NCBI GenBank assembly: GCA_965203275.1
Contig: OZ241865.1
Coordinates: 96,001-160,000 of the forward strand
Source of the DNA: Bdellovibrionales bacterium
GTDB taxonomy: Bacteria; Bdellovibrionota; Bdellovibrionia; Bdellovibrionales; JAUICD01
Reading direction: 5' to 3'
Length of the DNA: 64,000 nt
The translations under genes were made by a program, and so were the position numbers. Positions 7,741 to 63,512 of the stretch are shown piece after piece (the first letter of the stretch is position 1; the number at the start of each line of letters is the position of its first letter). Under the pieces are notes generated by a model, which was not told the origin of the DNA, made no database searches, and saw only the letters and a list, made by a program, of their open reading frames with translations.

Positions 7741-9265
7741 TTGGACCTTCTATTGTCTAATTTCGTCTTTTTTGCACTAAAAGTGGTCTGACCTCTAGTC
7801 ACTTTCTGGTTGCCAGCCGAAGGCTATTCGCCTTCTTATTCTTTTTCACTAAAAATAAACCAGCCTCTGGCTGTTTTTGAGCTGGATCTTCAATTTATTT
7901 CTTAAATTTCAAAATCATTGCCCTGAGACCAGACTCTTTCCCATTTATATCATTAGTTTTTATCACTTTTTACTCATTTGGCTTTGAAATTCTGTGCTTG
8001 CAAATAAAAAATCTGGATGCGAATGGTAATGGGCATTGCTCTGACAGCTTACGCTGTCTAAAAAGAGCAATGCCTCAAAAATCTGTTTATTTTTAGTAAG
8101 GAGGAAGCCTTCATTTTTTACTACATGTTAAGGAAAAAGTTCCTTCTATCAAAATTCCCTCAAAATTTCCCTTCCCTGAATATTCTAATCTAATTTCGTA
8201 TATCCATCAGGTCAAGCTCATTTCAGAGAACTGAAAGGTCAATTTTGAGGAGATCGGCTAGAAAATCACTGCATAACATCTTAATATGTACTCTTTGTTG
8301 TATATATTATTCTCAATCCTTTCTTTGAACCTTCTGTCTTTGGACCTTCTATTGTCTAACTTCGTTGATCCTCATTTGGACCTTCTATTGTCTAATTTCG
8401 TTGATCCTCATCTACCCGTACGAACCTCTTTCAGAGATACGTGAACTGTTTCCCTCAAAATTTCCCTTCCCTGAATATTCTAATCTAATTTCGTATATCC
8501 ATCAGGTCAAGCTCATTTCAGAGAACTGAAAGGTCAATTTTGAGGAGATCGGCTAGAAAATCACTGCATAACATCTTAATATGTACTCTTTGTTGTATAT
8601 ATTATTCTCAATCCTTTCTTTGAACCTTCTGTCTTTGGACCTTCTATTGTCTAACTTCGTTGATCCTCATCTACCCGTACGTATTTGATTTTCACTCAAA
8701 ATAAATCATGCCTCTGTTTCACTAAAAGTAAACCAGCCTCTGGCTGTTTTTGGGCAATCAGCCCGACGGCTCACGCCGTCGATCAAAGGCTGATTGCCTC
8801 AAAAATCCGTTTACTTTGAGTAGGGCGGATCTCCTTGCTTCTGACACCATGTTAGGGAAAAAGTGCTTTTATTACCTTAAGAGCAAGTGGTTTACGAATG
8901 AGGAACTTTTTCCTTAACATGTAGTCAAGAGACGAAGAGATCCTTTCTACTAAAAGTGGTCAGGCTTTCTAGGTGATGACCATTTTATCGATGGCGAAAG
9001 CCATTGCGGTCATTGTCCATTACCATTCGCATCTAGATTTTTTATTTGCAAGCACAGAATTTCAAAGCCAAATAAGATGAAGGTTTGTACAAGCTAATGA
9101 TATGAATGGGAAAGAGTCTGGTCTCAGGGCAATGATTTTGAAATTTAAGAAATAAATTGAAGATCCAGCTCAAAAGTGGCCAGAGGCCAGTTCATTTTGA
9201 GTGAAATGTTAAGGAAAAAGTTCAGTTTTAGTACCTGATGCCGGGTTGCCAGATCCCAGATCCCT
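7741..9265. repeat. Cluster of the structured palindromic element family plus accessory modules
   Basis: Cores at 7845-8140, 8716-8863 and 8900-9207; 221-bp direct duplication 8155-8375/8450-8670; 152-bp inverted inserts 7880-8031/9018-9170; GGGATC module 9236-9264. Confidence 0.9.
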
Positions 9266-9336
9266 TTAGTTGTTTTGAAATTTGGTATACTCCTTTAAAT
9301 CCATACCAGCAAATCTTATAATTTAAAAAAGGCAAA

Positions 9337-9735
9337 TTATTTTTTCAGCTTGAGAATGTCGTCTTTGGACAAACCTGTCATTGTAGAGATCAATGAAATA
9401 TTGAGATTTTCTTTCAACATATTTTGTGCTACTTTCTCCATTCCATCCTTACGACCTTTTTCCATCCCTTTTTCCATTCCTTTTTCCATCCCTTCCTTAC
9501 GACCTTTTTCCATCCCTTTTTCCATCCCTTTCTCCACTCCTTCCTTACGACCTTTTTCCATCCCTTTTTCCATTCCTTTTTCCATCCCTTCCTTACGACC
9601 TTTCTTCATCCCTTTCTCATAAGCACCCTCTTCTCTGGCTACTTGATCTTTTCTGTCTCTCTCTTTCACCATTGCAAGTTCCTGTAATGTCTCATCTTTT
9701 GATAATATCCATAAATGCTTTGCTGCTTCTGCCAT
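9337..9735 (-). CDS. Putative intragenic RpnS (in-frame internal start, 132 aa)
   Basis: AAGGGAGG-TATT-ATG in frame at Met214; same site in all three rpn copies. Confidence 0.65.
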   Translation of the reverse strand: MAEAAKHLWILSKDETLQELAMVKERDRKDQVAREEGAYEKGMKKGRKEGMEKGMEKGMEKGRKEGVEKGMEKGMEKGRKEGMEKGMEKGMEKGRKDGMEKVAQNMLKENLNISLISTMTGLSKDDILKLKK

Positions 9736-10374
9736 AATACCTCCCTTGTTTTGAAAATTGGTATACTCCTTTAAATCCATATTACCAGAGTTCTTTAAAA
9801 GATAACACCAATCTGCCTTTTTGTCAAATAATTCATGCAAACTTGACTGAAACTTGCCTAATTCTACAATGACAAAACACAATCCACGAGACATAATCAC
9901 TTCTGGTGGTTTTGTCCGACGGATATTGCAGATATGATAGTAATCCTTTATCCCTGCAAATTCTTTTAAATTAGCTGTTGTAAAAACAAGTGAATACACA
10001 GGAAGTAATTTATTAAAATCTTCGCCTTTCTTTATCTGACCAGAATAAGCCCTAGAAGCATAAACTAATATCCGATCTGTAAAAAACTTTTGACTTGTTG
10101 TTTGAACTTCTACATGGACAATATCTGTATCTTGAAGAACGCCTCTGATCCGTCTTCTTAATTTTACACGCAAATCTAAAGTAAAGGATTTGTATTCGTC
10201 TGGAACCTTATCGGGAAGAAGCTCTGTGTTTAATAATGAAACACCCTCTATCACAGAACCCTTAGGCAAAGGCACAAAATTCTCTACCAGTGAAATTAAA
10301 AGGTCTTCTCTCTTTTCAAAAAAAGCCTTGAAAATAGCATCTATTGTTAATTGTAATAAAACTCTCTCTGTCAT
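9337..10374 (-). CDS. Rpn/YhgA-like PD-(D/E)XK nuclease (recombination-promoting nuclease family)
   Basis: D..FKAFF, LDLRV, VEVQ, DR.L.Y.SR.YS.Q, W.Y.LK, EKG(M/R) repeats, C-terminal TGLS helix-turn-helix. Confidence 0.9.
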   Translation of the reverse strand: MTERVLLQLTIDAIFKAFFEKREDLLISLVENFVPLPKGSVIEGVSLLNTELLPDKVPDEYKSFTLDLRVKLRRRIRGVLQDTDIVHVEVQTTSQKFFTDRILVYASRAYSGQIKKGEDFNKLLPVYSLVFTTANLKEFAGIKDYYHICNIRRTKPPEVIMSRGLCFVIVELGKFQSSLHELFDKKADWCYLLKNSGNMDLKEYTNFQNKGGIMAEAAKHLWILSKDETLQELAMVKERDRKDQVAREEGAYEKGMKKGRKEGMEKGMEKGMEKGRKEGVEKGMEKGMEKGRKEGMEKGMEKGMEKGRKDGMEKVAQNMLKENLNISLISTMTGLSKDDILKLKK

Positions 10375-10582
10375 AACTTTGAACCTCCCTTTATATCTTT
10401 AAACATAATACAAATACCCTAAATGAAACCAAAACACAATATCCACAAATAGCAACTTTTAGCTTAATATTATCTCTAGCATTGATTTATTTATCTGAAA
10501 TTTCGTTTTTCCCCTTATTTTTAGGTTTTTTATATTGTCATCATACGAAAAAACAAAAATTAAGACAAATATAGAATTGGTA

Positions 10583-10924
10583 TTATTCTATAACTCCGGC
10601 CTCTTTTAAGAGGCTTACAACCTTTATATAGCCTTCATGACTAGTATCCATTAAAGCCGTCTCGCCAAATTTGTCTTGATGATTGACGTTAGCTCCATTT
10701 TCTAGCAATACCCTTACAACTTCTATATGGACTCTAGGGTCATCAGTGTCTTGAAGATTGACGTTAAGAGCTCCATTTTCTAGCAATACCCTTGCAACCT
10801 CTATATGGCCTTCAGAGTTAATATGTATTAAAGGTGGCAGTGGCATAAGGCTTTTAGCACAAGCCCATAGAGAATCACTAGAAACAAGCAAAGCAATAAA
10901 TAGGATAAAAATATATTTTTTCAT
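10583..10924 (-). CDS. Short secreted ankyrin-repeat protein (probably internally deleted)
   Basis: GHIEVARVLLENGA and GANVNHQDKFGETALM; leader shared with 26860..28659. Confidence 0.75.
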   Translation of the reverse strand: MKKYIFILFIALLVSSDSLWACAKSLMPLPPLIHINSEGHIEVARVLLENGALNVNLQDTDDPRVHIEVVRVLLENGANVNHQDKFGETALMDTSHEGYIKVVSLLKEAGVIE

Positions 10925-10951
10925 TTGTACCTTCCTTTTGAATTTTTGATT

Positions 10952-11368
10952 TTATTTTCACTAAAAATAAACCAGCCTCTGTTTCACTCAAAGTGAACTG
11001 GCCTCTGGCCACTTTTGGACAATGACCGCAAAGGCTTTCGCCTTTGACAAAATGGTCATTGTCTCAAAAGCCTGTTCACTTTGAGTAGGGAGGATCTCTT
11101 CGTTTCTTAACACCATGTTAAGGAAAATATCCTTCTAATACCAGTTAGCCCGACGGCTACCGCCGTCGATCAAAGGCTAACCGCCTCAAAAGCTTGTTCA
11201 ATTTTAGGAAGGAGGATGTCCTCATTTCTTAACACAATGTTAAGGAAAAAGTTCATTCTTACACCTCTCGACTGTCGTCGTCGATCAAAGGCTAACTCCC
11301 TCAAAAGCTTGTTCAATTTTAGTAAGGAGGATGTCCTCATTTCTTAACACAATGTTAATAAGGAAAAT
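10952..11368 (-). repeat. Structured element cluster (one full core, two 5' halves, one stacked 3' end)
   Basis: ACTCAAAGTGAAC 10986-10998 pairs with GTTCACTTTGAGT 11074-11086; repeated TAACA..TGTTAAGG modules. Confidence 0.9.
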
Positions 11369-12790: not shown

Positions 12791-12805
12791 CATACGAAGG
12801 GTTGC

Positions 12806-13151: not shown

Positions 13152-13692
13152 GTTTGTTTCACTAAAAGTAAACTGACCTCTGGTCACTTTTGGGTTGCCA
13201 GCCGAAGGCTATTCGCCTTCTTATCTTTTTCACTAAAAATAAACCAGCCTCTGTTTCCCTAAAATTGAACTAGCCGTCATTTTCACTCAAAATGCATCAT
13301 GCCTCTGGCATGTTTTTGGGCAATGACCGCAATGGCTTTCGCCATTGACAAAATGGTCATTGCCTCAAAAATCTATGCATTTTGAGTAGGGAGGATCTCC
13401 CTGTCTCTTGACACCATGTTAAGGAAAATATCCTTCTAATAGTTTGCCCGACGGCTACCGCCGTCGATCAAAGGCTAAGCTGTTTCACTAAAAGTGGTCT
13501 AGCCTCTGGCTACTTTCTGGCAATGACCGCAATGGCTTTCGCCATTGGCAAAATGGTCATCGCCTAGAAAGCCTGACCACTTTTAGTAGGAGGATCCTTT
13601 CCTCTTTTAACATCATGTTAAGGAAACAAAATGCTTTCAAAATTATATTAAAAGAGCAATGCCTCAAAAATCTATGCATTTTGAGTGGAAAC
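13152..13692 (-). repeat. Structured element cluster
   Basis: Full cores at about 13280-13430 and 13482-13630; stacked 3' ends at 13227-13278. Confidence 0.9.
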
Positions 13693-22220: not shown

Positions 22221-22392
22221 TTTGAGTTTACTTTTTGAAAGCCAAGGGCTTTTTATTCTTGTTAAGATCACCTCATCACACAATGTTCTCTTTTTGAGAT
22301 AGAGGCCACTTTATAATTCCGGGCGTATGCTTTGTTTTATCATCACACAACGTTCTCTTTTTTTTAGAGGCTACCCTATAAATTTGATATGT

Positions 22393-22862
22393 GATGGTGA
22401 CCATTTTGCCAACGTGAAGTAAACATCTCTTGTTTCCTTAACATGTAGTTAAGAGATGAGGAGATCCTTCTTACTAAAAGTAAACGGATTTTTGAGGCAA
22501 TCAGCCTTTTATCGACGGCAAGAGCCCAAAGGTGTAAGAAGGAACTTTTTCCTTAACATGGTGTTAAAAAATGAGGAGATCCTCCTCTACTCAAAATGAG
22601 CAGTTTTTTGCGGCATTGCTCTTTTTAGACAGCGTAAGCTGTCAGAGCAATGCCCAAAAACACACCAGAGGTGTGGCTCATTTTGAGTGAAACAACTAAC
22701 TCCTTACTCAAAGTGAACAGGCTTTTGAGACGATGACCATTTTGTCAAAGGCGAAAGCCTTTGCGGTCATCGTCCAAAAGTGACCAGAGGTCAGTTCACT
22801 TTGAGTGAAACAAACTCCTTAACATGGTGTTTATCCGGGATCTGGGATCCCGTATCCCAGAA
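22393..22862 (+). repeat. Structured element cluster upstream of rpn
   Basis: Core ACTCAAAATGAGC 22589-22601 pairs with GCTCATTTTGAGT 22676-22688; second core 22706-22812; GGGATC module 22833-22860. Confidence 0.9.
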
Positions 22863-23009
22863 GGATGATCTTTGTAGAGAAGATCACAGGATAATACATA
22901 TCATTCTTAGAGCAGTTATAAGGCAGTTAAAAGTTATGACAAACAGAATATATTTGACTTAAGTGATTTTTTACTATTAAACTAAGATAATAAAAATGAG
23001 GTATACAAG

Positions 23010-24035
23010 ATGAAAAAACCAAGCAAGAATTTAAGTTTAACAAAAGATCGTAATTTCAAGGCCTTCTTTACAAGGAAGAAAAAGCTTTTGATTTCGATAA
23101 TGGAGAATTTTCTTCCATTGCCAGAGGGTTCTGTAATAGAAGACATTCATATATTAAATACAGAACTTCCATCGGATAAATTCCCGGAGGAGTATAAATT
23201 TTTTGTTTTAGATTTGCGAGTACAATTAAGAAGAAGGATTAATGGCATTCTTCAAAATACAGAGACAGCGAATGTAGAAGTTCAAACAACAGCTCAAAAG
23301 CATTTTACGGATAGGTTACTGATGTATCTATCTCGGCTCTATTCAGGTCAAATTAAGAAAGGGGAGAATGTTGATAAGTTACTTCCCGTGTATTCATTGG
23401 TTTTCACAACTGTAAATTTAAAAGAATTTGAAGGAATAAAGGACTACTATCATGTTTGCAATATTCGTCGGACAGAGCATCCAGAAGTAGTGATGTCTCG
23501 GGGTATGAGTTTTGTGATAGTAGAATTAGATAAATTTCAGTCCCAATTAGGAGAATTATTTGACATAAAAGAGAATTGGTGTTATTTTTTAAAGAGGTCA
23601 GGTCAGATGGACCAAAAGGAATATTTATATTTCAAAGATAAAGGAGGAATCATGGCAGAAGCAGCTGAGCATTTATGGATATTATCAAAAGATGAGACAT
23701 TACAAGAGCTTGATATGGTGAAAGAGAGAGCTAGGAGGGATCAAGTAGACAGAGAAGAATTTGTTCGTGACGAGGGTCGTGAGGAAGGTCTTGAGAAGGG
23801 TTTTAAGAAGGGTCTTGAGAAGGGTATTGAGAAGGGTATTGAGAAGGGTATTGAGAAGGGTCGTGAAGAAGGTATTGATAAGGGTATTAAGAAGGGTCTT
23901 GAGAAAAAACAAAAAGAAATTGCACTTAAACTAATTGAGAGAAATGCAAAATTACAAGATATCTGTGAAATCACTGGCCTATCAGAAGCAGAAATCAAAA
24001 AAATTCGCCAATCGTTTTCACTCAAAGTGAAGTGA
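23010..24035 (+). CDS. Rpn/YhgA-like PD-(D/E)XK nuclease
   Basis: DRNFKAFF, LDLRV, VEVQ, EKGI repeats, TGLS HTH; last codons are supplied by the element end. Confidence 0.9.
   Translation: MKKPSKNLSLTKDRNFKAFFTRKKKLLISIMENFLPLPEGSVIEDIHILNTELPSDKFPEEYKFFVLDLRVQLRRRINGILQNTETANVEVQTTAQKHFTDRLLMYLSRLYSGQIKKGENVDKLLPVYSLVFTTVNLKEFEGIKDYYHVCNIRRTEHPEVVMSRGMSFVIVELDKFQSQLGELFDIKENWCYFLKRSGQMDQKEYLYFKDKGGIMAEAAEHLWILSKDETLQELDMVKERARRDQVDREEFVRDEGREEGLEKGFKKGLEKGIEKGIEKGIEKGREEGIDKGIKKGLEKKQKEIALKLIERNAKLQDICEITGLSEAEIKKIRQSFSLKVK
23652..24035 (+). CDS. Putative intragenic RpnS (127 aa)
   Basis: AAGGAGG-AATC-ATG at 23641-23654, in frame. Confidence 0.65.
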   Translation: MAEAAEHLWILSKDETLQELDMVKERARRDQVDREEFVRDEGREEGLEKGFKKGLEKGIEKGIEKGIEKGREEGIDKGIKKGLEKKQKEIALKLIERNAKLQDICEITGLSEAEIKKIRQSFSLKVK

Positions 24036-24062
24036 CCAGAGGTCAGTTCACTTTGAGTGAAA
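24016..24062. repeat. Two element ends fused into a 16-bp perfect hairpin between convergent genes
   Basis: TTTCACTCAAAGTGAA-15 nt-TTCACTTTGAGTGAAA. Confidence 0.8.
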
Positions 24063-24143
24063 CAACATAGATTTTCTAAAATTCTGCCACAAAAACAAAA
24101 ACCTAGTGGCACAAAATCTCTTTCGACTCATAACCTACTGATT

Positions 24144-24581
24144 TTACTCAACTTTATTTTTGCAGGCTATCAAACTCAGGATTTGATCTAAAGCCCCGGT
24201 AGCAAAGTCAAAACCCATTCGTCTAGTATTAACTTTATTTACGTCGGTAGCTAAAGGGCCGTTATATACACCAGAGGCAGGCCTTGTCGTTACGTTGACG
24301 TTGATTCCTACGGCCCCTCTATCTGCTATATTCCAGCCGGCCGTATAATAGGAAAGTCCCGCTTGGTCATATCCCATTTGTTCAAGATTTGCTGTTGCAT
24401 AATCCCATTCTGTTATAAACGTCATTTGGGCCGCATAAATACTAGTTAGTGTTGTCTTTGCATTTGTTTGAATAGCCCTTCGTTTAAATTGACCATACTG
24501 TGGTACAGCAATCACAGCTAAAATACCAATAATAGCCACAGTGACCATTATCTCAATTAAAGAAAACCCTGATTGTTTCAT
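24144..24581 (-). CDS. Type IV pilin (PilA-like); C-terminus replaced by a repeat, possibly truncated
   Basis: MKQSG/FSLIEIMVTVAIIGILAVIAVPQY class III signal; the last ~12 codons lie in a 79-bp repeat also found at 58156-58234. Confidence 0.85.
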   Translation of the reverse strand: MKQSGFSLIEIMVTVAIIGILAVIAVPQYGQFKRRAIQTNAKTTLTSIYAAQMTFITEWDYATANLEQMGYDQAGLSYYTAGWNIADRGAVGINVNVTTRPASGVYNGPLATDVNKVNTRRMGFDFATGALDQILSLIACKNKVE

Positions 24582-24621
24582 ATTCTGTTTCCTTATCTTG
24601 CACCGGTCGCTTGCAATACCT

Positions 24622-25701
24622 TTACCATCCCCGGTTCACACAGTTAGGTTTATGGCCACAGAGTTGCGGATTTGCCCCGGCCGCTCGCAATACCTTTACT
24701 ACTTCTCTATGGTTGCTTACATAAGCCTTTTCTAAAGCTGTCCTGCCCCAATGTCGAGGACTAGGATGTTGATAATTGACGTTAGCCCCGGCCGCTAGCA
24801 ATAACTTTACAATCTCTACATTGCCCTTACGCAAATCAGTAACATAAAGTAAAGGTGTCATGTAATTAAAGTTTATAATATTAGCGTTGGCTCCGACTGT
24901 TAGCAATAATCTTACAGTCTCTGTATGGCCCCTCCTACTAGCATGCATTAAAGCCGTATTGTCCCTAATGTTTTGATGATTGACGTCAGCCCCGGCTGCT
25001 AGCAATATCTTTACAGATTCATGCATGTCTAAAAAAATCTTTACATAATCATGTCTAAGTCTAAAGACCGCACTGGCATGTAGTAAAAGCGTATTGTGGT
25101 CTTTGTCCATCAGCATATTAACGTCCATACAAGTACTTTTTAAAAATAGCTTTAAAATTTCTGTATTTTTGACAAGGGCCACTATGCTCGAATAATCATC
25201 CCTGTTCATAACCTTGTTAATAGTCGAAAAACTACGAGGGTCTGCTCCGGCCGCTAGCAAATTCTTTACACCCTCTATATCACCATTAATAACAGCCGTC
25301 TTTAATCTCGTAGCACCATAATTAGGCCTGCAAGTGTATGTTGTTGGTCTTAAAACTTGCTGTTGAGCTGGAGTTGGTCCTGGAATCAGAATCAGAGTTG
25401 CATTTGGTTCTGGAATCCGAGCTGGTCGTGGAGTCGGAGTTGGTACTGGAGTCGGAGTTGCTGTTGGTCCTGGAGTCGGAGTTGGAGATGGTCCTGGAGT
25501 TGCTGTTGGTCCTGGAGTCGGAGTTGGAGATGGTCCTGGAACCGGAATCGAAGCTGGCTTTTGTTCTATTTGAGATCTGGACGTCTTACTGTCAAAACGG
25601 CCTTTTGAACAGTTGTTAAAACTGAATACCAAACAAGACACAATAAGCAATGCTAACGATAAATAAGCAAGCTTTTTTTTAGATTTTAGATTTTTAAACA
25701 T
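24622..25701 (-). CDS. FNNC lipoprotein with Pro/Thr linker and ankyrin repeats
   Basis: FSFNNCS lipobox, (PGPSPTPTPGPTAT)x2, LLAAGADVN and TALMHA ankyrin motifs. Confidence 0.85.
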   Translation of the reverse strand: MFKNLKSKKKLAYLSLALLIVSCLVFSFNNCSKGRFDSKTSRSQIEQKPASIPVPGPSPTPTPGPTATPGPSPTPTPGPTATPTPVPTPTPRPARIPEPNATLILIPGPTPAQQQVLRPTTYTCRPNYGATRLKTAVINGDIEGVKNLLAAGADPRSFSTINKVMNRDDYSSIVALVKNTEILKLFLKSTCMDVNMLMDKDHNTLLLHASAVFRLRHDYVKIFLDMHESVKILLAAGADVNHQNIRDNTALMHASRRGHTETVRLLLTVGANANIINFNYMTPLLYVTDLRKGNVEIVKLLLAAGANVNYQHPSPRHWGRTALEKAYVSNHREVVKVLRAAGANPQLCGHKPNCVNRGW

Positions 25702-25763
25702 ATTGTACCTACCTTGATAAATATTGAAAAAAGGGCCATTTTTTAGTGATTCTAAATGACCTT

Positions 25764-26177
25764 AGTGATTTCAAGGACTTAGCACTGTAACTTTTGTATA
25801 AAAGTTACAATTTGAAAGAGCAAAAAACAGGCAAATTTTTGCAAGAAAATTGTTTTGAAAAATCAAACAAATCAAAAGTTATAAAACACAAATGAAAAAT
25901 CATTGTTTATTTTACTGATCTTATGTCTTTAAGATTGGTAAAGTGTTTCAAGATGATACAAAAATTAAAAAAAGTGATTCTTTTTGATACAAAATGTCAC
26001 TTTTTTTGATTTTTTTAACAAAAATATAAAGTTTTATATCATAATAACCGATAAGAATTATGTTAGACGAAAAATTTAGATATTTCTAAAGTTGACCTGC
26101 AAAAAGTCTAACAATTACAAACACTTAATACTGTAACTTTTATACAAAAGTCACAATACTAACTTATTGAAATCACT
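25764..26177. promoter_or_regulatory. 46-bp imperfect inverted repeats (24-bp palindrome plus IHF-like site) flanking a sigma28-like promoter
   Basis: TGTAACTTTT-GTAT-AAAAGTTACA 25786-25809 and its inverse at 26132-26155; TAAAGTTT-N12-ACCGATAA 26027-26054. Confidence 0.5.
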
Positions 26178-26237
26178 GGATTTCTAATTTTCAAATACTT
26201 TTTTCACTATCTTTTAGAAAAAATACAGAGATTACGA

Positions 26238-26810
26238 ACATCTTGTTTCCCTAACATGGTTTTCATCTGGGATCCGGGATCTGGCAATCAGGCAAACCGG
26301 CATCAGAAGGAAAAGGTGTAAGAAAGAGCTTTTTCCCTAACATCGTGTTAAATGAGAAATGGATCCTCATTACTAAAAGTGGTCAGGCTTTCTAGGTGAT
26401 GACCATTTTATCGACGGCGTGAGCCGTCGTGGTCATCGCCAGAAAGTAGCCAGAGGCTAGACCACTTTTAGTGAAACAAACCCTTAACATTGTGTTAAGA
26501 AATGAGGACATCCTCCTTCCTAAAATTGAACAAGCTTTTGAGACAGTTAGCCTTTGATCGACGGCGAGAGCCGTCGGGCTAACTGTCCAAAAGTAGCCAG
26601 AGGCTAGACCACTTTTAGTGAAACAAACCCTTAACATCGTGTTAAGAAATGAGGACATCCTCCTTCCTAAAATTGAACAAGCTTTTGAGACAGTTAGCCT
26701 TTGATCGACGGCGAGAGCCGTCGGGCTAACTGTCCAAAAGTAGCCAGAGGCTAGTTCAATTTTAGGGAAACAGAGGTCAGTTCACTTTGAGTGAAAATGA
26801 CGGCTTGACT
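26238..26810 (+). repeat. Structured element cluster with a 147-bp tandem duplication
   Basis: Units start at 26481 and 26628; GGGATC leader 26264-26306; stacked 3' end at 26771-26797. Confidence 0.9.
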
Positions 26811-26859
26811 TTTGAGATATATGCGGTTATAAAATCAAAAATTCAAATGGAAGGTACAA

Positions 26860-28659: not shown

Positions 28660-29744
28660 CATGATGTTGATCCAGGATCTGGGATCCGGGATCTGGCAAG
28701 CGGGCAACAGATGTAAGAAGGAACCTCCCTAACCCCACCCACCGCCCTTCGATTCTGCTTTCCCATTTTGTTTTTATTTGAGGATGGGGCAGTGTGAGCC
28801 TTCCGAAGTCCTCAATTTTTTTCACTCAAAATGAACTGGCCTCTGGCCACTTTTGGGTAGCCAGCCCGACGGCTCTCGCCGTCGTAAAAGGCTGGCTACC
28901 TCAAAAGCTTGTTCATTTTGAGTAGAGGAGGATCCTTTTATTCCTCTACACCATGTTAGGGAAACAAGATATGCCTCTAAAATGTTTTTGGAGAGCAAGC
29001 TCAATTTGCGGAAGATCTCCAGTCTCCCACTGCCCCATCCTCCTCCCTAATTACTTCTTTTTTGAAAATTACGCAGAATCTAAAAAAAATAAAAAAACAA
29101 AAATACGAATATCTTGTTTCCTTAACATGGTGTTAAAAAATGAGGGGATCCTCCTTCCTAAAATTGAACAAGCTTTTGAGGGCATCAGGCAGAAAAGGCA
29201 TTTTGTTTCCTTAACATGGTGTTAAGAGACAAGAAGATCCTCCCTACTAAAAGTGGTCAGGCTTTCTAGGTGATGACCATTTTATCGATGTGAAGTAAAC
29301 ATCTTGTTTCCTTAACATGGTGTTAAGAGACAAAGAGATCCTTCCTACTAAAAGTAAACGGACTTTTGAGATAGCCAGCCTTTGATCGACGGCGGTAGCC
29401 GTCGGGCTGGCTATCCAAAAGTGACCAGAGGTCAGTTTACTTTTAGTGAAACAAATTCTTGATTTGGTGGATGTACGAAGTTAAAAATAAAAGATTCAAA
29501 GAAGGGAAATTGATAGAAGGAACTTTTTCCTTAACATCCTGTCAAAAAACGAAGGGATCCTCCCCTACTAAAAGTAAACGAACTTTTGAGACAATGACCA
29601 TTTTGTCAAAGGCGAAAGCCTTTGCGGTCATTGTCCAAAAGTGACCAGAGGTCAGTTTACTTTTAGTGAGCCAATGCACGTATCTCTGAAAGAGGTGCGT
29701 ACGGGTAGACGAAAACACATGAAGTTAGACAATAAAAGGTCCAA
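28657..29744. repeat. Structured element cluster with G4-motif composite and portable RBS module
   Basis: Minus core 28820-28965; plus cores 29305-29452 and 29520-29670; accessory IR 28750-28810/29020-29085. Confidence 0.9.
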
Positions 29745-30626
29745 ATGATGAAAAAAACAAATGATCAACAAACATCAAATGATCAACAAACATCAAAAGA
29801 TCAGGAATTTCTGATTCCGTCTCCGACTCCCCTGTCTAATAGAAACTTACTTTATAAGCCCTTTGTAACTTTTCTCTATAAAGAGATTAAACGTTTTTGG
29901 CGTGTAAAGGGGCAGACAGTGATAAACCCTTTAGTTCAAAGTTCTCTTTATCTTTTAATTTTTGGTGTGAGTTTAGGTAAAAGCATCACTTTACAAAACG
30001 GCCTAAGTTATATGGAATTTTTAATTCCTGGTCTGGTGATGATGGCAGCTTTAAATAATGCCTTTCTCAATTGTTCTGGTTCAATTGTGACTTCTAAGTT
30101 TCATGGAGATATTCAGGACCTTAAAATTATCCCCTTATCTGATTATTTTATTTTGTTAGCTTTTGCTTTAGGTGGGCTTATTCGAGGTATGGTTGTAGGG
30201 CTATTTACTCTGTTGGCTTGTCAAATATGCTTCTTTTTTATCAATGGTCATTTGCTCTCTATTGCATATCCTTTTTTATTTTTTGCTTTCTTATGTATAG
30301 GTGGTTTATCTTTTGGTTTCCTGGGGGCTTTTACAGCTTTTTGGGCAAAAACCTTTGATCATGTCAATGCCATTAGTGGCTTTGTGGTTTTGCCTCTACT
30401 CTATTTAGGGGGTGTTTTTTACTCTATAGAAACATTACCTGAAACTTTGCAAATCATCTCAAAGATGAACCCTATGCTTTACTTTATTAGTGGTGTACGT
30501 TATGGATTTTCACAACAGAGCGATATAGAATGGATCTATTGTTTAGGGGTTGCTGTGGTGTCTATGTTTGTGTGCATGTATTTGAGTGTCAATCGTTTCC
30601 GTAGCTCCACTTTCCATCGTTGGTGA
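29745..30626 (+). CDS. ABC-2 transporter permease (YadH-like)
   Basis: KEIKRFWR..QT, YMEFLIPGLVMM, P..YLGGVFYSI..LP, NPMLYFISGVRYG. Confidence 0.88.
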   Translation: MMKKTNDQQTSNDQQTSKDQEFLIPSPTPLSNRNLLYKPFVTFLYKEIKRFWRVKGQTVINPLVQSSLYLLIFGVSLGKSITLQNGLSYMEFLIPGLVMMAALNNAFLNCSGSIVTSKFHGDIQDLKIIPLSDYFILLAFALGGLIRGMVVGLFTLLACQICFFFINGHLLSIAYPFLFFAFLCIGGLSFGFLGAFTAFWAKTFDHVNAISGFVVLPLLYLGGVFYSIETLPETLQIISKMNPMLYFISGVRYGFSQQSDIEWIYCLGVAVVSMFVCMYLSVNRFRSSTFHRW

Positions 30627-43463: not shown

Positions 43464-44590
43464 CATCCGGGATCTGGGATTTGGGATCTGGGATCCGGCA
43501 TCTGGTCAGAAGGAACTTCCCTAACCCCACCCCCCGCCCTTCGATTCTGCTTTTATATTTGTATGTTTTTTATGAGTGGAATGCGAAGGCAGGCTTCCGA
43601 AGTCCTCATTTTTTTTCACTCAAAATAAATCATACCTCTGGCATGTTTTCTGGCAGTTAGCCCGACGGCTACCGCCGTCGATCAAAGGCTAACTGCCTAG
43701 AAAATCCATTTATTTTGAGTAGAGGAGGATCCTTTTATTCCTCTACACCATGTTAGGGAAACAAGATATGCTTCTAAAACTTTTAGTGAGCCAACACTTC
43801 CAGTCTCCCACTGCCCCATCCTCCACCTAATTATTTTTTGTTTGAGAGTTACGCAGAATCTAAAAGAAAATAAAAAAAACAAAAAAGGAACATCTTGTTT
43901 CCTTAAAATTTCACTCAAAATAAATCATGCCTCTGGCATGTTTTCTGGCAGTTAGCCCGACGGCTACCGCCGTCGATCAAAGGCTAACTACCTAGAAAAT
44001 TCATTTATTTTGAGTAGGGCGGATCTCCTTGCTTCTGACACCATGTTAAGGAAACAAGATATGCTTCTAAAATGTCTTTGGAAAGCAAGCGGATTGCGAT
44101 AAAGGAAATTTTTCCTTAACATCATGTTAAGAAACGAAGAGATCCTTTCTACTAAAAATAAACGGATTTTTGAGGCATTGCTCTTTTAATATAATTTTGA
44201 AAGCATTTTGTTTCCTTAACATGATGTTAAAAGAGGAAAGGATCCTCCTACTAAAAGTGGTCAGGCTTTCTAGGCGATGACCATTTTGCCAATGGGAAAT
44301 AAACATCTTGTTTCCTTAACATCGTGTAAAGAGACAAGAGGATTCTTCCTACTAAAAATAAACGGATTTTTGAGGCAATCAGCCTTTGATCGACGGCGAC
44401 AGCCGTCGGGCTGATTGCCCAAAAACAGCCAGAGGCTGGTTTATTTTTAGTGAGACAAACGCGGTCATTGTCCAAAAGTAGCCAGAGGCTAGTTTACTTT
44501 TAGTGAACCAGAGGTGTGGCTCATTTTGAGTGAAACAGAGGTCAGTTCACTTTGAGTGAACCAGAGGTCAGTTCACTTTGAGTGAAAACG
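43464..44590. repeat. Structured element cluster (G4 composite, head-to-head dimer, nested halves, stacked 3' ends)
   Basis: Minus cores 43612-43762 and 43909-44055; plus core 44310-44455; stacked ends 44463-44588. Confidence 0.9.
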
Positions 44591-45362
44591 ATTGGCGAAT
44601 TTTTTTGATTTCTGCTTCTGATAGGCCAGTGATTTCACAGATATCTTGTAATTTTGCATTTCTCTCAATTAGTTTAAGTGCAATCTCTTTTTGTTTCTTC
44701 TCAATACCTTTCTTAAAACCCTTCTCAATACCTTCTTCACGACCCTTCTCAATACCTTCTTCACGACCCTTCTCAATACCCTTCTCAATACCTTTCTCAA
44801 TACCTTTCTCAATACCTTTCTCAAGACCCTTCTTAAAACCCTTCTCAAGACCTTCCTCACGCCCCTCGTCACGAACAAATTCTTCTCTGTCTACTTGATC
44901 CCTCCTTGCTCTCTCTTTCACCATATCAAGCTCTTGTAATGTCTCATCTTTTGATAATACCCATAAATGCTCAGCTGCTTCTGCCATGATTCCTCCTTTA
45001 TCTTTGAAATATAAATATTCCTTTTGGTCCATCTGACCTGACCTCTTTAAAAAATAACACCAATTCTCTTTTATGTCAATTAATTCTCCTAATTGGGACT
45101 GAAATTTATCTAATTCTACTATCACAAAACTCATACCCCGCGACATCACTACTTCTGGATGCCCTATCCGACGAATATTGCAAACATGGTAATAGTCCTT
45201 TATTCCTTCAAATTCTTTTAAATTTACAGTTGTGAAAACCAATGAATACACGGGAAGTAACTTATCAATATTCTCCCCTTTCCTAATTTGACCTGAATAG
45301 AGCCGAGATAGATACATCAGTAACCTATCCGTAAAATGCTTTTGAGCTGTCGTTTGTTTCAC
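44568..45362 (-). pseudogene. 5'-truncated rpn copy that keeps an intact RpnS frame (44568..44987)
   Basis: Near-identical to 23010..24035 from QTTAQKHF onward; N-terminal ~90 codons, including the LD and E of EVQ, are replaced by an element end; AAGGAGG RBS for RpnS is intact. Confidence 0.85.
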
Positions 45363-46092
45363 TCAAAATGAACTGGCCTCTGGCCACTTTTGGGTAGCCA
45401 GCCCGACGGCTACCGCCGTCGTAAAAGGCTGGCTACCTCAAAAGCTTGTTCATTTTGAGTAGAGGAGGATCCTTTTATTCCTCTACACCATGTTAGGGAA
45501 AATTTCTTTTATTACCTCAAGAGCAAGCGAGTTACAATAAAGGAACTTTTTCCTTAACATCATGTCAAAAAACGAAGATATCCTTCCCTACTAAAAGTGG
45601 TCAGGCTTTCTAGGTTGCCAGCATTTGAGAAGGCGAAAGCCTTCGGCTGGCAACCAGAAAGTGACCAGAGGTCAGACCACTTTTAGTGAAAAAAACTATG
45701 TAAAGTTTACAAAGTACCCTATAACCTTTACAATGTGGGTTGTTTTCGTTTGCAATCTGTTGCAATCTATGCATAATAAGGCAAGAAAGGATTCATTCCG
45801 GGATCCGGGATCCGGCAATCGGGCAAGCCGGCATCAGAAGGAAATCTTTTTCCTTAACATAGTGTTCATTCCGGGATCCGGGATCTGGCAATCCGGGAGC
45901 CGGCATCAGAAGGAAATCTTTTTCCTTAACATGGTGTTAAGAAATGAGGACATCCTCCTTCCTAAAATTGAACAGGCTTTTGAGGCAGTTAGCCTTTGAT
46001 CGACGGCGGTAGCCGTCGGGCTAACTGCCCAAAAGTAGCCAGAGGCTAGTTCAATTTTAGGGAAACAGAGGCTGGTTTATTTTTAGTGAAAC
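45356..46092. repeat. Head-to-head element dimer plus a further core and GGGATCC modules
   Basis: GTTTCACT 45356 to AGTGAAA ~45691; core 45961-46061; heptamer runs 45795-45836 and 45868-45908. Confidence 0.9.
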
Positions 46093-48997: not shown

Positions 48998-49972
48998 TCC
49001 GGATTCGGCATCCGGGATCCGGGATCTGGGATCCGGCAGAACTTTTTCCTTAACATCGTATTAAAAAATGAGGACATTCTCCCTACTAAAAGTAAACGGA
49101 CTTTTGAGGCATTGCTCTTTTTAGACAGCGTGAGCTGTCAGAGCAATGTCCAAAAACACACCAGAGGTTGGTTTACTTTTAGTGAACCAACTCCTTAACA
49201 TGGTGTTAAATGAGAAATGGATCCTCATTACTAAAAGTGGTCAGGCTTTCTAGGTTGCCAGCATTTGAGAAGGCGGTAGCCTTCGGCTGGCAACCAGAAA
49301 GTGACCAGAGGTCAGACCACTTTTAGTGAAACAAACTCCTGTAGCCTGCCTTCGCATCCCACTCATAATATTTATATTTAATATTTATATTTTTTGAAAA
49401 TTACGCAGAATCTAAAAAAGAATAAAAAAAATAAAAAAACGAAACTCTTTTTCCCTAACATCGTGTTAAAAAACGAAGAGATCCTCTCTACTAAAAGTGG
49501 TAAAGCTTTCTAGGTTGCCATTGGTGATGAAGGAATTTTTTCCTTAACATCATGTTAAAAGACGAAGAGATCCTTCCCTACTAAAAGTAAACGGACTTTT
49601 GAGACAATGACCATTTTGCCAATGGCGAAATATCAAAGTGAAATAAACATCTTGTTTCCTTAACATTGTGTTAAGAAATGAGGAGATCCTTCCCTACTAA
49701 AAGTAAACGGACTTTTGAGACAATGACCATTTTGCCAATGGCGAAATATCAAAGTGAAATAAACATCTTGTTTCCTTAACATTGTGTTAAGAAATGAGGA
49801 GATCCTTCCCTACTAAAAGTAAACGGACTTTTGAGACAATGACCATTTTGCCAATGGCGAAAGCCATTGCGGTCATTGTCCAAAAGTAGCCAGAGGCTAG
49901 TTTACTTTTAGTGAACCAGAGGTGTGGCTCATTTTGAGTGAAACAGAGGTCAGACCACTTTTAGTGAAACAA
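48998..49972 (+). repeat. Structured element cluster with a 3x116-bp tandem repeat
   Basis: GATCCTTCCCTACT at 49569, 49685 and 49801; full cores at 49042-49188, 49193-49332 and 49770-49916. Confidence 0.9.
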
Positions 49973-52964: not shown

Positions 52965-53435
52965 TTGGACCTTTTAATTTGTTTCACTCAAAATAAATCA
53001 TGTCTCTGGCATGTTTTCTGGCAGTTAGCCCGACGACTGTCGTCGTCGATCAAAGGCTAACTGCCTAGAAAATCCATTTATTTTGAGTAAGGGAGGATCT
53101 CATCGTCTCTTGACATGATGTTAGGGAAAAAGTTCTTTCTTACATCTTTTGGCTGTCGCCGTCGATCAAAGGCTGATTGCCTCAAAAGTCCGTTTACTTT
53201 TAGTAGGGAGGATCCCTTCGTCCCTTAACTCCATGTTAAGGAAAATATCCTTTTAATACCAGTTAGCCCGACGGCTGTCGCCGTCGATCAAAGGCTGATT
53301 GCCTCAAAAATCCGTTTATTTTTAGTAGGGGAGGATCCTCTCGTCTCTTGACTACATGTTAAGGAAAAATTCAGTTTTAGGATCTGATGCCTGACTGCCG
53401 GATCCCGGGTTGCCGGATCCTAGATGCCGGATAAA
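52965..53435 (-). repeat. Structured element cluster
   Basis: Full core 52981-53130, two 5' halves, GCCGGATCCCGG module 53380-53432. Confidence 0.9.
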
Positions 53436-58234: not shown

Positions 58235-58274
58235 GCAACCTACTGAAAAATTTAATATTTTTTCTTATTTTTGT

Positions 58275-59025: not shown

Positions 59026-59054
59026 TTTAACCAACTAAAAGAAGGAGATAGATT

Positions 59055-59270: not shown

Positions 59271-59699
59271 CGATCAGAACTGAGGTAATGAAAGAAAGAA
59301 TGGAAGAAATCGGAATTCGTGAACCTGAGAAATAGAGTTTTTTAGCCAGTGTTTTCCATCTAGTTCATTTGCTCGCTTTTTTTCAGTTATTATAGGCTTT
59401 TTTGTTGGATATTTCTGGTTATTTCAAGCATTTAAACTCCTTTTTAATACATGGATTCATTTTAACATTAGTGTATCACCTATTCTCATAAGCGACTTGA
59501 AAACTAGATAAACAGTCAGTCTATGAAATATGGAGTGAGGTCAGTGCAAGAAGAAGATTTACAGAAGATACGGAAAATACAGGATTGAGATTAGATGCAT
59601 TAAAAAGTATCTTTTTTGATAAGCATAAGATTTGCAATGTAGATATATTTGATGTTTTAGCATCTGCGTCTTTATTGATTAAATTATCAATAATCCTTT

Positions 59700-59936
59700 C
59701 TACATGTAGGGCATGGGATGATTTTCCTTTTTAAAGGTTGTCCAATTATTAATATCTGGATAAAATTTTTGCTCTCCATGATCAACTACAATACGGGAAG
59801 CATAAGCAATAGAAGGTAAATTAATAACTAAAATGCCAGATTTTTTATTTACTTTGCCATCATACATGCTTGAGTATATTTCCCAATCAATGTGTTTACG
59901 ATCTTTTGTTTCTTTACCGACAAGAAGAATCGTCAC
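59700..59936 (-). pseudogene. Remnant of a ThsB/MTH538-like TIR domain
   Basis: VTILLVGKET..RKHIDWEIYSS...K.SGILVINLP; N-terminal strand and start are missing. Confidence 0.65.
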
Positions 59937-59969
59937 AGTGGACTTAAATATAAAAAAGTAAAATGTGCA

Positions 59970-60878: not shown

Positions 60879-60892
60879 AAACATCCTCCCTA

Positions 60893-62041: not shown

Positions 62042-62153
62042 GCAACACCTCCTATTTAATGGTTTTAAAAAATATTTAATTCTATACATAATTTAATTTT
62101 ATACATAAAGTTATATCGGTCACATAATTGAAAAACTTAAGTTAAATCTTTTA

Positions 62154-62262
62154 TTTCACTAAAAGTGGTCAAGCTTTCTAGGTTGCCAGCATTTAAGAAG
62201 GCGAAAGCCTTCGGCTGGCAAGCCAAAAGTAGCCAGAGGCTAGACCACTTTTAGTGAGCCAA
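62154..62262 (+). repeat. Isolated element core
   Basis: ACTAAAAGTGGTC...GAAGGC-GAAA-GCCTTC...GACCACTTTTAGT. Confidence 0.85.
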
Positions 62263-62335
62263 CTCTTGACAAGCTTAAACATAAGTGCTTAGCTAGTACT
62301 TCCAACAACTCAGAGGGCAATAATAAGGAGGTTTT

Positions 62336-62494
62336 ATGTCTGCTAAAGTTACTCAAAAAGGCATACAGACAGCAAAGGAAAAGCAAGATATTTTATTACC
62401 AAAAAAAGCTGGTTCTATCCACAACGATGCTTTCCAAGGTGTTTTTGATGATGAAGACAGACTAAAGCGACTGCTTTTTTTCCACTCAAAATAA
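62336..62494 (+). pseudogene. 52-codon gene start truncated by an element; possibly an Rpn/YhgA N-terminus
   Basis: TAAGGAGG RBS; HNDAFQGVFDDEDRLKRLL resembles the YhgA HD..FK..F start; the frame ends inside CACTCAAAATAA. Confidence 0.4.
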
Positions 62495-63512
62495 ATCATG
62501 CCGTCTGTTTCACTTGAAATGAACCACACCTCTGGTGTGTTTTTTGGTGTTGCCTGCAAAGGCTTTCGCCTTTGACAAAATAGGCAACACCTAAAAAATC
62601 CATTCATTTCAAGTAAGAAAGGATATCCTTGCCACTTGACATCATGTTAAGGAAAATGTCCTTCTAATGGCAGTTAGCCCGACGGCTACCGCCGTCGATC
62701 AAAGGCTAACTGCCTAGAAAATCCATTTATTTTGAGTAGGGAGGATCCTTTTATTCCTTTACACCATGTTAAGGAAATTTTTCTTTTATTGTCTTAAGAG
62801 CAAACAAGCTTACAAATGAAACTCTTTTTCCCTAACATTGTCTTTATCCGGGATCTGGGATCCGGCAACCCACCATCGGGCAGATAGTTATCAAAAGGAA
62901 ATTTTTCCTTAACATGTAGTTAAGAGACGAGGAGATCCTCCCCTACTCAAAATGCATAGATTTTTGAGGCAATGACCATTTTGTCAAAGGCGAAAGCCTT
63001 TGCGGTCATTGCCCAAGGTGTAAGAAGGAACTTTTTCCTTAACATGTGGTCAAGAGACGAGAGGATCCTCCCCTACTTGAAATGAACAGATTTTTGAGGC
63101 ATTGCTCTTTTTAGACAGCGTGAGCTGTCAGAGCAATGCCCAAAAACACACCAGAGGTGTGGTTCATTTCAAGTGCAAAAGACGGCATGATGCATTTTGA
63201 GTGAAAAAAAACGTATCGAATTTTGAGTATATCTTGTATAATTTGAAGGACTGTGATATTCTTAAAGATGTAAAAGATAATGTGATTCGACCTTCATTAT
63301 GGACCTTTCAACAGATATGGTCTTTAAAGAAAGGTCAAGATCAGAAGTCAAGTAAAAGTCTTGTTTCCTTAATATGGTGTTTATCAAGAGATCCGGCAAA
63401 CAGGCAAGGATGAAGCAAACGCCTTGTTTTCTCATGATATTCATCTGGGATCCCGGATTGACACAATGTTAAGGAAACAAGCTGGTTAGCACGACGGCTG
63501 TCGCCGTCGATC
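62483..63512. repeat. Structured element cluster
   Basis: Minus cores 62506-62775; plus cores 62897-63205 (ACTTGAAATGAAC 63075-63087 pairs with GTTCATTTCAAGT 63162-63174); degenerate pieces 63355-63512. Confidence 0.88.

Follow-up and report, generated by a model that had tools for sequence, protein, structure and literature searches.

The genome of a Bdellovibrionales bacterium (G000) carries an abundant family of repeats, and the evidence supports its being a non-coding, non-autonomous family that was previously undescribed. The unit of about 145 nt is made of a leader (TTTCC-TAACA), a three-way-junction core of helices P1 to P5 and a GAAA tail; it contains no ORF and, with about 650 cores, accounts for 6.2% of the genome DNA. 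What is new in this analysis is a strand-specific difference between G·T and A·C mismatches in its helices, by which the fold of the sense strand is seen to be selected at amplification. On balance, we consider it somewhat more likely than not that the repeat is a selfish, non-autonomous element that acts as a single strand and enters DNA breaks by being copied, starting at its 3' end.

Results

Architecture and copy number

We analyzed a 64-kb stretch of one contig (the window) together with the rest of the genome. A scan of the window for a 13-bp P1 flanking the P5 loop, with at most one mismatch, found 23 cores, and found none in each of 10 triplet-shuffled windows. A k-mer inventory added a loop variant (52982-53129) and a copy whose P1 arms are different alleles (26479-26623), giving 25 complete cores, 23 of them with a leader, among 68 pieces altogether. 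The initial annotation had counted about 25, which agrees, and the five P1 arm pairs that it quoted are present at 22589/22676, 29347/29435, 45590/45675, 45961/46049 and 63075/63162; its core length of 98-101 nt has to be widened to 98-103 nt.

On the minus strand, complete elements (leader, P1-P5 core and GAAA) lie at 8717..8860, 10982..11126, 13281..13427, 13483..13626, 28820..28964, 43614..43761, 43909..44054, 45357..45501, 52982..53129 (the P5 variant) and 62508..62655. On the plus strand they lie at 22548..22692 (core 22589-22688), 29307..29451 (core 29347-29447), 29526..29671, 44311..44455, 45549..45691, 45921..46065, 49045..49187, 49190..49331, 49771..49916 and 63034..63178 (core 63075-63174), and in a tandem of three with a period of 147 (26332..26476, 26479..26623 and 26626..26770), the second being a single-crossover chimera. 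Two further plus-strand cores are complete, one with its leader cut at unit position 35 (22700..22810) and one with no leader (62158..62259).

RNAalifold, applied to 33 copies, returned the three-way junction that had been claimed, with 42 pairs, double changes in 31 of these and an invariant T·G closing P1. It predicted no base pair in the leader, where the initial annotation had placed three hairpins before each core; among 606 leader-bearing copies of the genome, AAGGAA stands within 16 nt upstream in 146, TAACA/TGTTA pairing is perfect in 243 and GAGGA..TCCTC is present in 93. Alignment and consensus show nearly invariant sequence at both element ends and in the P5 loop; sequence is thus important as well, in addition to the fold that is selected at amplification (see below). 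The loop is of the form G..A in 631 of 647 copies, 209 of which are GNYA and so outside the RNA GNRA class. GNA and GNNA loops are stable in DNA.

The genome contains 1,894 pieces, including 671 full copies, 620 3' pieces and 429 5' pieces, and the most frequent type of cluster is a single full copy. The first leader base is the start of 1,071 of the 1,894 pieces and GAAA the end of 1,240, and the P5 loop is a hot spot at which 138 3' pieces start.

No Rfam 15 family matched the window at or above the gathering threshold, the 10 weak matches in 22300-30000 being far below it, and blastn against phage and plasmid collections gave no match; no copy was found outside the genus. With insertion visible against paralogous empty sites, the suggestion of an undescribed non-autonomous mobile element stands. 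Misassembly does not explain the clusters: across four public runs, taken from four studies, the summed depth of element bins was far above that of single-copy bins (1,800-9,800 versus about 51 in run X2), and unique contigs of X2 end at the edges of element clusters.

Helix alleles and selection of one strand

Alleles with at least three copies number 17 for P1, 6 for P2, 30 for P3, 10 for P4 and 8 for P5, and minimum spanning trees of the alleles contain 39 double Watson-Crick changes across helices. Four-gamete violations occur for every helix pair, which indicates that helix alleles have been reshuffled by recombination among copies. The covariation reported initially is genuine, but the 25 copies are not independent sources of it: its basis is a set of 6-30 alleles for each helix, with about 39 double changes in all, that has been shuffled in the form of nested modules.

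Single-mismatch helix alleles seen once comprise 16 with G·T and 14 with A·C, and those seen three or more times comprise 14 with G·T and one with A·C (Fisher p 0.008). The excess of G·T among amplified alleles means that the fold under selection during copying is that of one strand, the sense strand. Rare point changes show no strand asymmetry (C>T 37, G>A 52). The filter is leaky, since a P1 chimera with two mismatches has been amplified 16 times and P1 arms are discordant in 74 of 610 typed full copies.

Junctions and nesting

The two ends of the element behave differently. The 3' end is a fixed GAAA followed by 0-7 extra bases, whereas the 5' end is sloppy, with donor flank or a fold-back. 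We compared 80 filled sites with empty ones that are paralogs within the same genome, many lying in other repeats and several being redundant. The gaps ranged from -55 to +382 nt. A few extra bases, rich in A and C, stand at the 3' joint, and linkers of 0-55 nt at the 5' joint; the 80 pairs share no target duplication of fixed length, and deletions reached about 380 nt. No strain-level empty allele was seen in the four public runs. A MITE mobilized by a DDE enzyme does not agree with these gaps, nor with ends that are unlike each other and hence form no terminal inverted repeats.

A fold-back arm of at least 6 bp onto TTCCTT was found at 99 of 442 distinct 5' junctions in the genome, versus 8 after shuffling, and in sister-species loci at 8 of 63 versus 2.9. 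In sister-species copies the P5 loop is extended by 1-3 fold-back units of 14 nt.

The element also inserts into its own P5 loop. In stacks of a 5' piece, a full copy and a 3' piece, the two outer pieces have matching P1 arms in 39 of 88 cases, where chance would give 12.3, and in most of these 0-29 nt are missing. The window has several groups of fragments. Three stacked 3' fragments starting at unit positions 126, 122 and 78 occupy 13157..13275 (minus strand), four of different alleles, three of them starting at the P5 loop, occupy 44461..44587 (plus), and two of 26-29 nt with P5-loop starts occupy 49915..49969 (plus). Pairs of 5' fragments lie at 11142..11358 (minus; each followed by a linker of about 20 nt and then the next leader), at 53151..53367 (minus) and, back-to-back, at 62668..63016, and three 5' fragments lie upstream of element 49771, at 49450..49746 (plus). 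A 150-nt cargo repeat (7881-8030), with 24 near-full copies in the genome, splits an element between P3' and P2' beside 3' fragments at 7772..8136 (minus), and the same cargo splits a second element at 8909..9206 (plus). The data show directly that the two ends differ, that paralogous targets suffer deletions, that the element inserts into itself and that it has insertion hot spots.

Neighboring elements are back-to-back in 149 cases and head-on in 27. In 84 back-to-back pairs the spacer is related in 65, and many different allele pairs are combined, as expected of independent insertions. Pairs whose tails point outward stand in place of 139-345 nt in rpn genes. In the window, the pair 45357..45501 and 45549..45691 has a 47-nt spacer, and the 3' end of its left member abuts an Rpn gene that lacks its 5' part (44568..45362, minus) and has element clusters on both sides. 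Another Rpn gene (23010..24035, plus) is preceded by a cluster and has a 3' fragment at the stop codon, and a third, of the PDDEXK_2 type (9337..10374, minus), has a cluster 130 nt behind it; we regard the latter gene as a target, any role as mover being putative.

Orientation shows no bias relative to transcription (80:69) or to replichore (346:325, on a noisy, skew-based replichore call). Intergenic placement shows a mild excess between convergent genes (88/373 versus 177/1,012, p 0.014).

A four-helix-bundle gene associated with the element

A gene of 101 aa with a PF05635 four-helix bundle, whose ortholog in genome G001 matches the S23p structure XCC0516 (E 1e-4), is carried by a multi-copy cassette that is palindromic and flanked by repeats. 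The element lands at 3-4 spots in these genes, in gene sense. Of 25 fragments that start inside the gene, 21 follow an element tail in gene sense (positions 9, 203-206, 250 and 264), and in 11 of 14 that retain only the 5' part a leader in the same sense comes next. A heptamer array of GGGATCT type ending GGCAACCCGGCATCAG, then a linker and a leader stub, lies at 9235..9265 (minus) in the window; such arrays also flank PF05635 genes elsewhere in the genome, and 108 of 140 array ends have a leader within 60 nt downstream. The 5' UTR of the cassette is a fold-back palindrome, which in other genomes of the order, at loci picked as pairs, carries a full inverted twin gene.

Within the family, PF05635 hits number 14-19 in three genomes, each of which also contains this repeat or, in G004, another hairpin repeat with at least 50 matches; the two genomes with no hits contain neither. 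However, the element was recognized in 4 of 8 four-helix-bundle loci fetched from the sister genome. It was not found beside the G004 loci (8 of 9 shown), and PF05635 is widespread, being present in 47 of 121 genomes of the order, whereas the element occurs in a single genus, so that the gene is not sufficient.

Enzyme searches

The initial annotation had proposed an HUH, IS110 or reverse transcriptase partner; none of these was found in the genome, which is 90% complete by markers, so that an enzyme may be absent from the assembly or supplied by a phage. There was no Y1_Tnp (PF01797), no RVT_1 (PF00078) and no hit in a motif scan for reverse transcriptases, and an HUH motif search gave no match worth following. 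Y2_Tnp (PF04986) and the IS110 DEDD recombinase (PF02371) gave no hit in either genome of the genus, which speaks against an IS110/bridge-RNA element. G001 has one Y1 gene, of ordinary IS200 type and with no element flanks, and three reverse-transcriptase hits with no counterpart in G000, whose motifs suggest enzymes of group II introns and retrons. Neither of two Xer-like tyrosine recombinases lies beside elements, and polymerases and nucleases are tied to the element by proximity only.

Discussion

In the model that we favor, the active molecule would be the sense strand, probably in the form of single-stranded DNA; a DNA intermediate appears appreciably more probable than an RNA one. Entry would occur at nicks or breaks, where a host 3' end would be joined to the 3' tail, probably by priming on it, and 0-7 bases would be added under loose templating. 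We lean only slightly towards primed synthesis over strand transfer, and the junction polarity fits rolling-circle strand transfer equally well. The antisense copy would traverse the unit, overshoot the leader into donor flank or fold back on itself, and then anneal by microhomology across the break, with 0 to about 380 nt deleted or up to about 23 nt duplicated. Preferred break sites would be older copies (the P5 loop and, on the other strand, the leader), four-helix-bundle cassettes and other hairpin repeats, a preference that would generate nested clusters. Recombination among the 650 or so copies would reshuffle helix alleles, and amplification would be restricted to folds intact on the sense strand.

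The leading candidate partner for copying, although a tentative one, is the PF05635 (S23p/Avd-like) cassette with a host polymerase. PF05635 proteins are described as having no known catalytic activity, within the text available of PMC4990558, and Avd as a cofactor of the reverse transcriptase of diversity-generating retroelements (DGRs; PMC6182149, in part). The element may share its copying route with this long-unexplained gene, or the cassette may be only a target. We presume Avd and PF05635 proteins to be kin.

A doubtful but more substantial alternative than those below is a REP/REPIN-like or rolling-circle element whose HUH tyrosine transposase is missing from the assembly, recently lost or too diverged for Pfam. 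The tail would then be the nicking end and the leader a leaky stop, and the back-to-back pair might, with similarly low probability, be a REPIN-like doublet. One sharp end, one leaky end with donor flank and the related spacers agree with this, as does a single-strand fold that is specific to one strand and has a bulged base, such as TnpA-REP and IS200/IS605 enzymes need according to the part of PMC8266576 available. Besides the missing enzymes, the variable bases at the 3' joint, the extent of target loss and the mixed allele pairs argue against it, as does the lack of a GTAG or CGTC tag in alignment and consensus.

That the Rpn (PD-(D/E)XK) nucleases, with about 30 copies in the genome (PDDEXK_2 14 hits, Transposase_31 16 hits), cut and are the cognate factor, host repair copying the element in, seems unlikely. 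An element lies within 150 nt of the 3' end in 15 of 19 full-length rpn genes versus 218 of 796 control genes (p 6e-6, although rpn copies are kin), and interruptions are found in many rpn copies; an insertion that knocks out a toxic gene may simply persist. G003 has 16 Transposase_31 hits and no element, and two PDDEXK_2 loci inspected in G001 lack it. The available text of PMC10400941 reports toxin-antitoxin phage defence and no evidence of autonomous transposition.

We give equally little credence to a SINE-like element, whose sense RNA with a tRNA-like 3' end would be copied by a reverse transcriptase in trans, through target priming and template jumping. The 3'-end start, the head-to-tail stacks of 5'-truncated pieces with extra bases at the jumps, and the tails GAAACA, GAACCA and GAGCCA, which resemble an NCCA end, would suit it, as would a neighboring small protein in the fold class of Avd. 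However, the required enzyme is lacking in G000, the GNYA loops and the unbiased transcriptional orientation do not fit, and adenine-specific mutagenesis is not seen (A>N 48 versus T>N 23, the base counts being unequal). The outer stack pieces, often one older copy, indicate insertion and not jumping. A host-serving terminator, RNA-processing or nucleoid-binding site spread by recombination or gene conversion, with no dedicated mobility, is very improbable: the convergent-gene excess and the allele reshuffling are compatible with it, but rpn genes, four-helix-bundle genes and other copies are broken at fixed unit positions with non-homologous joints, orientation is unbiased, and 6% of a small genome is occupied.

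IS91/ISCR and Helitron types have one fixed end and one leaky end with donor flank, and make no fixed target duplication. The element resembles them in all these respects; no Y2/Rep enzyme was found in either genome of the genus, and its fixed end has variable bases. In integron attC sites, structure is conserved over sequence, one strand is active and a base is extrahelical. These traits recur in the element; nevertheless, it forms no gene-cassette array, there is no integron integrase, and its joints are imprecise, with deletions.

REP, BIME and REPIN repeats with their RAYT enzymes, as presented in the parts available of PMC3116915, PMC8266576 and PMC3733652, are likewise extragenic, lineage-restricted and present in hundreds of copies, with a bulged single-strand fold, inverted doublets, ordered clusters and compensatory changes, the last also within one genome (PMC3116915). 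REP is, however, a 20-40-nt hairpin, and no RAYT gene was found in the genome. Target deletions, donor-flank linkers, P5-loop self-insertion and modular helix alleles also set the element apart. ORF-bearing 23S rRNA intervening sequences (PMC4990558, in part) resemble the cassette as multi-copy carriers of a PF05635 gene, but the cassette is not in rRNA. To the reverse transcriptase, template region and adenine mutagenesis of the DGR system of Avd (PMC6182149, in part), the present system has no counterpart. CGTC-type REPs and Rickettsia palindromic elements are also abundant structured repeats, for which the text available of PMC3733652 gives no dedicated transposase. The element has another fold and is not an in-frame gene insert. 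A second repeat of the genome (TCCTCA..CTGCGG), which may resemble the Rickettsia palindromic elements, is itself an insertion target of the element.

Abundance and fold of the element

The genome of the window (G000) consists of one contig of 2.57 Mb with 35% GC and is 90% complete; the window, G000:C1:96001-160000, contains housekeeping genes along with genes for ankyrin proteins and for three Rpn nucleases. The initial annotation had described about 25 complete cores of a palindromic family here, and we found 25, 23 of them with a leader, among 68 element pieces, with the P1 arms it had located present at those positions. A core detector gave 23 matches in the window and none in 10 shuffles; over the whole genome it gave 686 cores (403 distinct), 648 after filtering, and element pieces amount to 160,395 bases, or 6.2% of the genome. 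That the clusters might be assembly chimeras was checked and an artefact ruled out, since repeat depth was far above single-copy depth in four independent runs and the unique contigs of run X2 stop at the edges of element clusters.

RNAalifold applied to 33 copies gave the same three-way junction that had been drawn from the sequence, in which 31 of the 42 pairs show double changes and a T·G beneath P1 is invariant. It predicted zero pairs in the leader, and the three leader hairpins said to precede each copy were found in only 146, 243 and 93 of 606 copies, so that neither result supports these hairpins as a conserved structure. The element is real, mobile, fold-selected and, among the genomes searched, restricted to its genus. 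The proposal of an undescribed structured mobile repeat stands: Rfam gave no match above threshold, and neither the repeat nor its link to four-helix-bundle genes is described in the literature searched, which comprised few subscription papers. The element works like the already known REP/REPIN-type repeats, as far as the parts consulted of PMC3116915, PMC8266576 and PMC3733652 describe them, but the tag test and the RAYT test both separate it from them, and the membership tests for MITE, IS91, IS110, retroelement and attC each place it outside those kinds.

Distribution

The element was found in G000 and in a sister species of the same genus (G001), and among 150 genomes of the order the only other matches were in G004, a genome of the same family. 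G004 was rejected as a second genus carrying the element: its 12-13 matches sit on the small contigs C1, C4 and C11. Contig C11 is probably foreign and derived from the window's genus, because its second rplN gene is 98% like that of G001 while the rplN of contig C14 is only 79% like that of G001, and the two rplN genes of G004 are 79% alike to each other; C11, C1 and C4 together appear to be foreign contigs of this origin, the rplN evidence bearing on C11. Partial extra rplN copies lie near the ribosomal protein operon at G004:C11:41626 and 44512 and at G001:C1:2850419, and at another inspected locus (L003) elements lie between rpsQ and rplN.

No match was obtained in phage or plasmid collections. 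A metagenome scan with a loose pattern gave at least 118 loci, and the covariance model, applied to 80 of them, gave a best E of 0.51. The same kind of scan of GTDB genomes gave at least 43 loci, 29 of them in one Bdellovibrionales MAG record; among the matches listed, this MAG alone held true copies outside G000, and the other 14 loci, as well as 2 viral loci, gave no covariance-model match. Run X9, from a sponge metagenome, covers a strain close to G000.

Covariation and selection of one strand

Alleles with at least three copies numbered 17 for P1, 6 for P2, 30 for P3, 10 for P4 and 8 for P5, and 45 were perfect. Minimum spanning trees connect them through 39 double Watson-Crick changes, 25 steps into or out of G·T and 22 into or out of a mismatch. 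The family is a within-genome record of compensatory evolution in which G·T intermediates are visible between perfect alleles. Of 610 typed full copies, 536 had concordant P1 arms, where 15% would be expected at random. Both arms of one helix are co-inherited (Cramer's V 0.93-0.97), adjoining arms of different helices are more loosely associated (0.52-0.77), and every helix pair violates the four-gamete test, which indicates an exchange of helices as nested modules. In the sister genome the same fold is built from alleles of its own, with double changes at 32 of 42 pairs on the 65 distinct rows of alignment A2, a count biased toward the model to which that alignment was fitted.

Single-mismatch alleles seen once comprised 16 G·T and 14 A·C, as symmetric mutation predicts (rare point changes were 37 C>T and 52 G>A), whereas those seen three or more times comprised 14 G·T and 1 A·C (p 0.008). 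Because a G·T reads as A·C on the opposite strand, this difference means that amplification selects for the fold of the strand as written. Orientation relative to transcription was unbiased (80:69); replichores of G000 were assigned from a noisy GC skew. P4 loops have the form G..A in 631 of 647 cases, 209 of which are GNYA, a pattern closer to that of DNA mini-hairpins than to the GNRA loops of RNA.

Ends, joints and a proposed mechanism of copying

The unit spans TTTCC to GAAA, 1,071 of 1,894 pieces beginning at the former and 1,240 finishing at the latter. In G000 we counted 671 full copies, 620 3' pieces and 429 5' pieces; 138 3' pieces start at the P5 loop. Clusters are ordered as 5' pieces, then full copies, then 3' pieces, and neighbours lie back-to-back more often than head-on (149 vs 27). 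No fixed duplication was seen in 80 filled/empty pairs, which are paralogous sites, several redundant and many within other repeats; the gaps varied between overlaps, of 23 nt at two clean sites and of about 10 nt in rpn, and deletions that reached 382 nt. When contigs from public reads were compared, none among the matches listed bridged an empty site.

The 3' joint gains 0-7 A/C-rich bases. The 5' joint carries a linker of 0-55 nt, and the same linkers recur at different sites and therefore derive from donors; a fold-back arm onto TTCCTT is enriched at this joint (99/442 vs 8). The element also inserts into itself: in 39 of 88 stacks, against 12.3 expected, the outer pieces carry the same P1 allele, mostly with 0-29 nt lost; these matching alleles weaken pure template-jumping as the origin of the 26-nt stacks. 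The leader on the opposite strand is a second self-target (101 of 1,233 tails), and sister-species copies hold one to three extra 14-nt fold-back units inside the same P5 loop.

On balance we lean towards copy-in at breaks, in which a folded single strand would be copied into a DNA break from the element's 3' tail onwards, with closure through microhomology or through fold-back past the leader. With about 650 copies whose joints can be read, the family provides a direct statistical sign of one-strand fold selection during copying, and the candidate partners open to testing are few.

Other repeats accompany the element. Split elements at window 7881-8030 (-) and about 9020-9170 (+) hold a 150-nt cargo between P3' and P2', present in 24 near-full copies. 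A 260-nt non-coding repeat (window 8161-8420 (-) and about 8430-8690; 104 blast matches, 11 near full) also makes up the region upstream of the exonuclease III gene at 7740 and is one of the element's targets. A second hairpin repeat with a TCCTCA..CTGCGG core, near window 28800 and 43600 and G000-wide, provides with its arms the spacer of most back-to-back pairs; it presumably resembles the Rickettsia RPE.

Candidate mobilizing enzymes

An HUH enzyme, lost or unrecognised, would predict the same polarity of joints as copy-in at breaks; neither a Y1 transposase nor a Y2 was found in G000, despite the suggestion of a co-occurring HUH gene, and we regard this explanation as unlikely. The IS110 gene suggested with it was likewise not found there. 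An Rpn nuclease as cognate factor would accord with the enrichment of element neighbours at rpn genes (15/19 vs 218/796), but G003, another genome of the family, has 16 Rpn-type matches and no element, and evidence in the part of PMC10400941 consulted argued against transposition by Rpn, which makes this role improbable. Equally doubtful is a route through RNA, for which the reverse transcriptase that had been proposed was not found in G000. A host function without mobility seems extremely improbable.

Several further candidates were rejected. Tyrosine recombinases are Xer-like and without linkage to the element; GIY-YIG proteins are represented by one UvrC-sized frame of 645-653 codons per genome; IS256-like and IS1634-like families of G000 (the names are our reading) make inverted-repeat ends, which the element does not have; and no DGR-type adenine mutagenesis was seen among element copies. 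By-eye inspection of 96 genes with elements on both sides showed rpn, four-helix-bundle, ankyrin, IS and housekeeping genes and no new candidate.

Two Rpn genes of the window, 9337-10374 (-) and 23010-24035 (+), have an internal ribosome-binding site and an internal start ahead of 4-residue repeats, the RpnL/RpnS layout in the part of PMC10400941 consulted. In four other rpn copies of G000 the element is inserted exactly at the internal start, and a fifth is cut there. G000 also has a 126-member ankyrin-rich gene family and a 65-member family of small membrane-helix and coiled-coil genes with tandem arrays at G000:C1:209338-212474, 585874-589044, 654134-659491 and 2207636-2211731. In G001 we noted a 590-codon reverse transcriptase that we read as retron-like, fused to an N-terminal domain (L052), and what we read as a group II intron with a deleted twin (L050/L053). 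Neither G003 nor G004 gave a Phage_integrase (PF00589) match, so no XerC/D was detected in them.

The four-helix-bundle genes

Among candidate partners, the four-helix-bundle gene (PF05635) has the closest physical tie to the element. Of 25 gene fragments starting internally, 21 sit behind an element tail of the same sense as the gene, at four positions; 11 of 14 fragments with only the 5' part precede a leader, as do 108 of 140 ends of heptamer arrays (a separate regex count mixing both strands was left aside). PF05635 matches numbered 14 in G000, 19 in G001, 19 in G004 and none in G002 or G003. What counts against a partnership is that PF05635 occurs in 47 of 121 genomes from the order, and the gene may be a mere target.

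The 5' UTR of the gene is a fold-back palindrome, which in other genomes of the order holds a whole inverted twin gene (six divergent pairs parsed among 13 loci picked as pairs). G004 has a different hairpin repeat, with 50+ matches, beside some of its four-helix-bundle genes.

Avd, which we take to be akin to PF05635, might serve as a functional model for the four-helix-bundle protein. In the part of PMC6182149 consulted, Avd is a pentamer that binds the template RNA and confers processivity on the DGR polymerase; PF05635 has no known activity according to the part of PMC4990558 consulted. A structural relative, XCC0516, was matched at E 1e-4. We tentatively propose, with low confidence, that the PF05635 protein may be the factor that acts in trans in a copying system without transposase or reverse transcriptase: it would bind folded single strands and deliver them to host polymerase at DNA breaks, moving its own heptamer-flanked cassette, which would leave fold-back palindromes and twin genes, plus parasitic genome-specific structured repeats, such as the three-armed element and the unrelated G004 hairpin repeat. 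If true, this would supply a mechanism for several orphan bacterial repeat families and for rRNA intervening sequences; if the link to the element holds, a protein family so far without a role would gain one.

The hairpin repeat of G004 (L013:687-804) is 118 nt long with a C-GAA-G loop; its 50 matches came from scoring 40 of 137 candidates, and of five genomes only G004 has it. At L221-L233 (G035, G031, G095, G025, G113 and G026, genomes of the order) divergent twin genes flank a perfect 30-60-bp palindrome that contains both ribosome-binding sites, and the single four-helix-bundle genes of G000, G001 and G004 retain a stub of the inverted twin.
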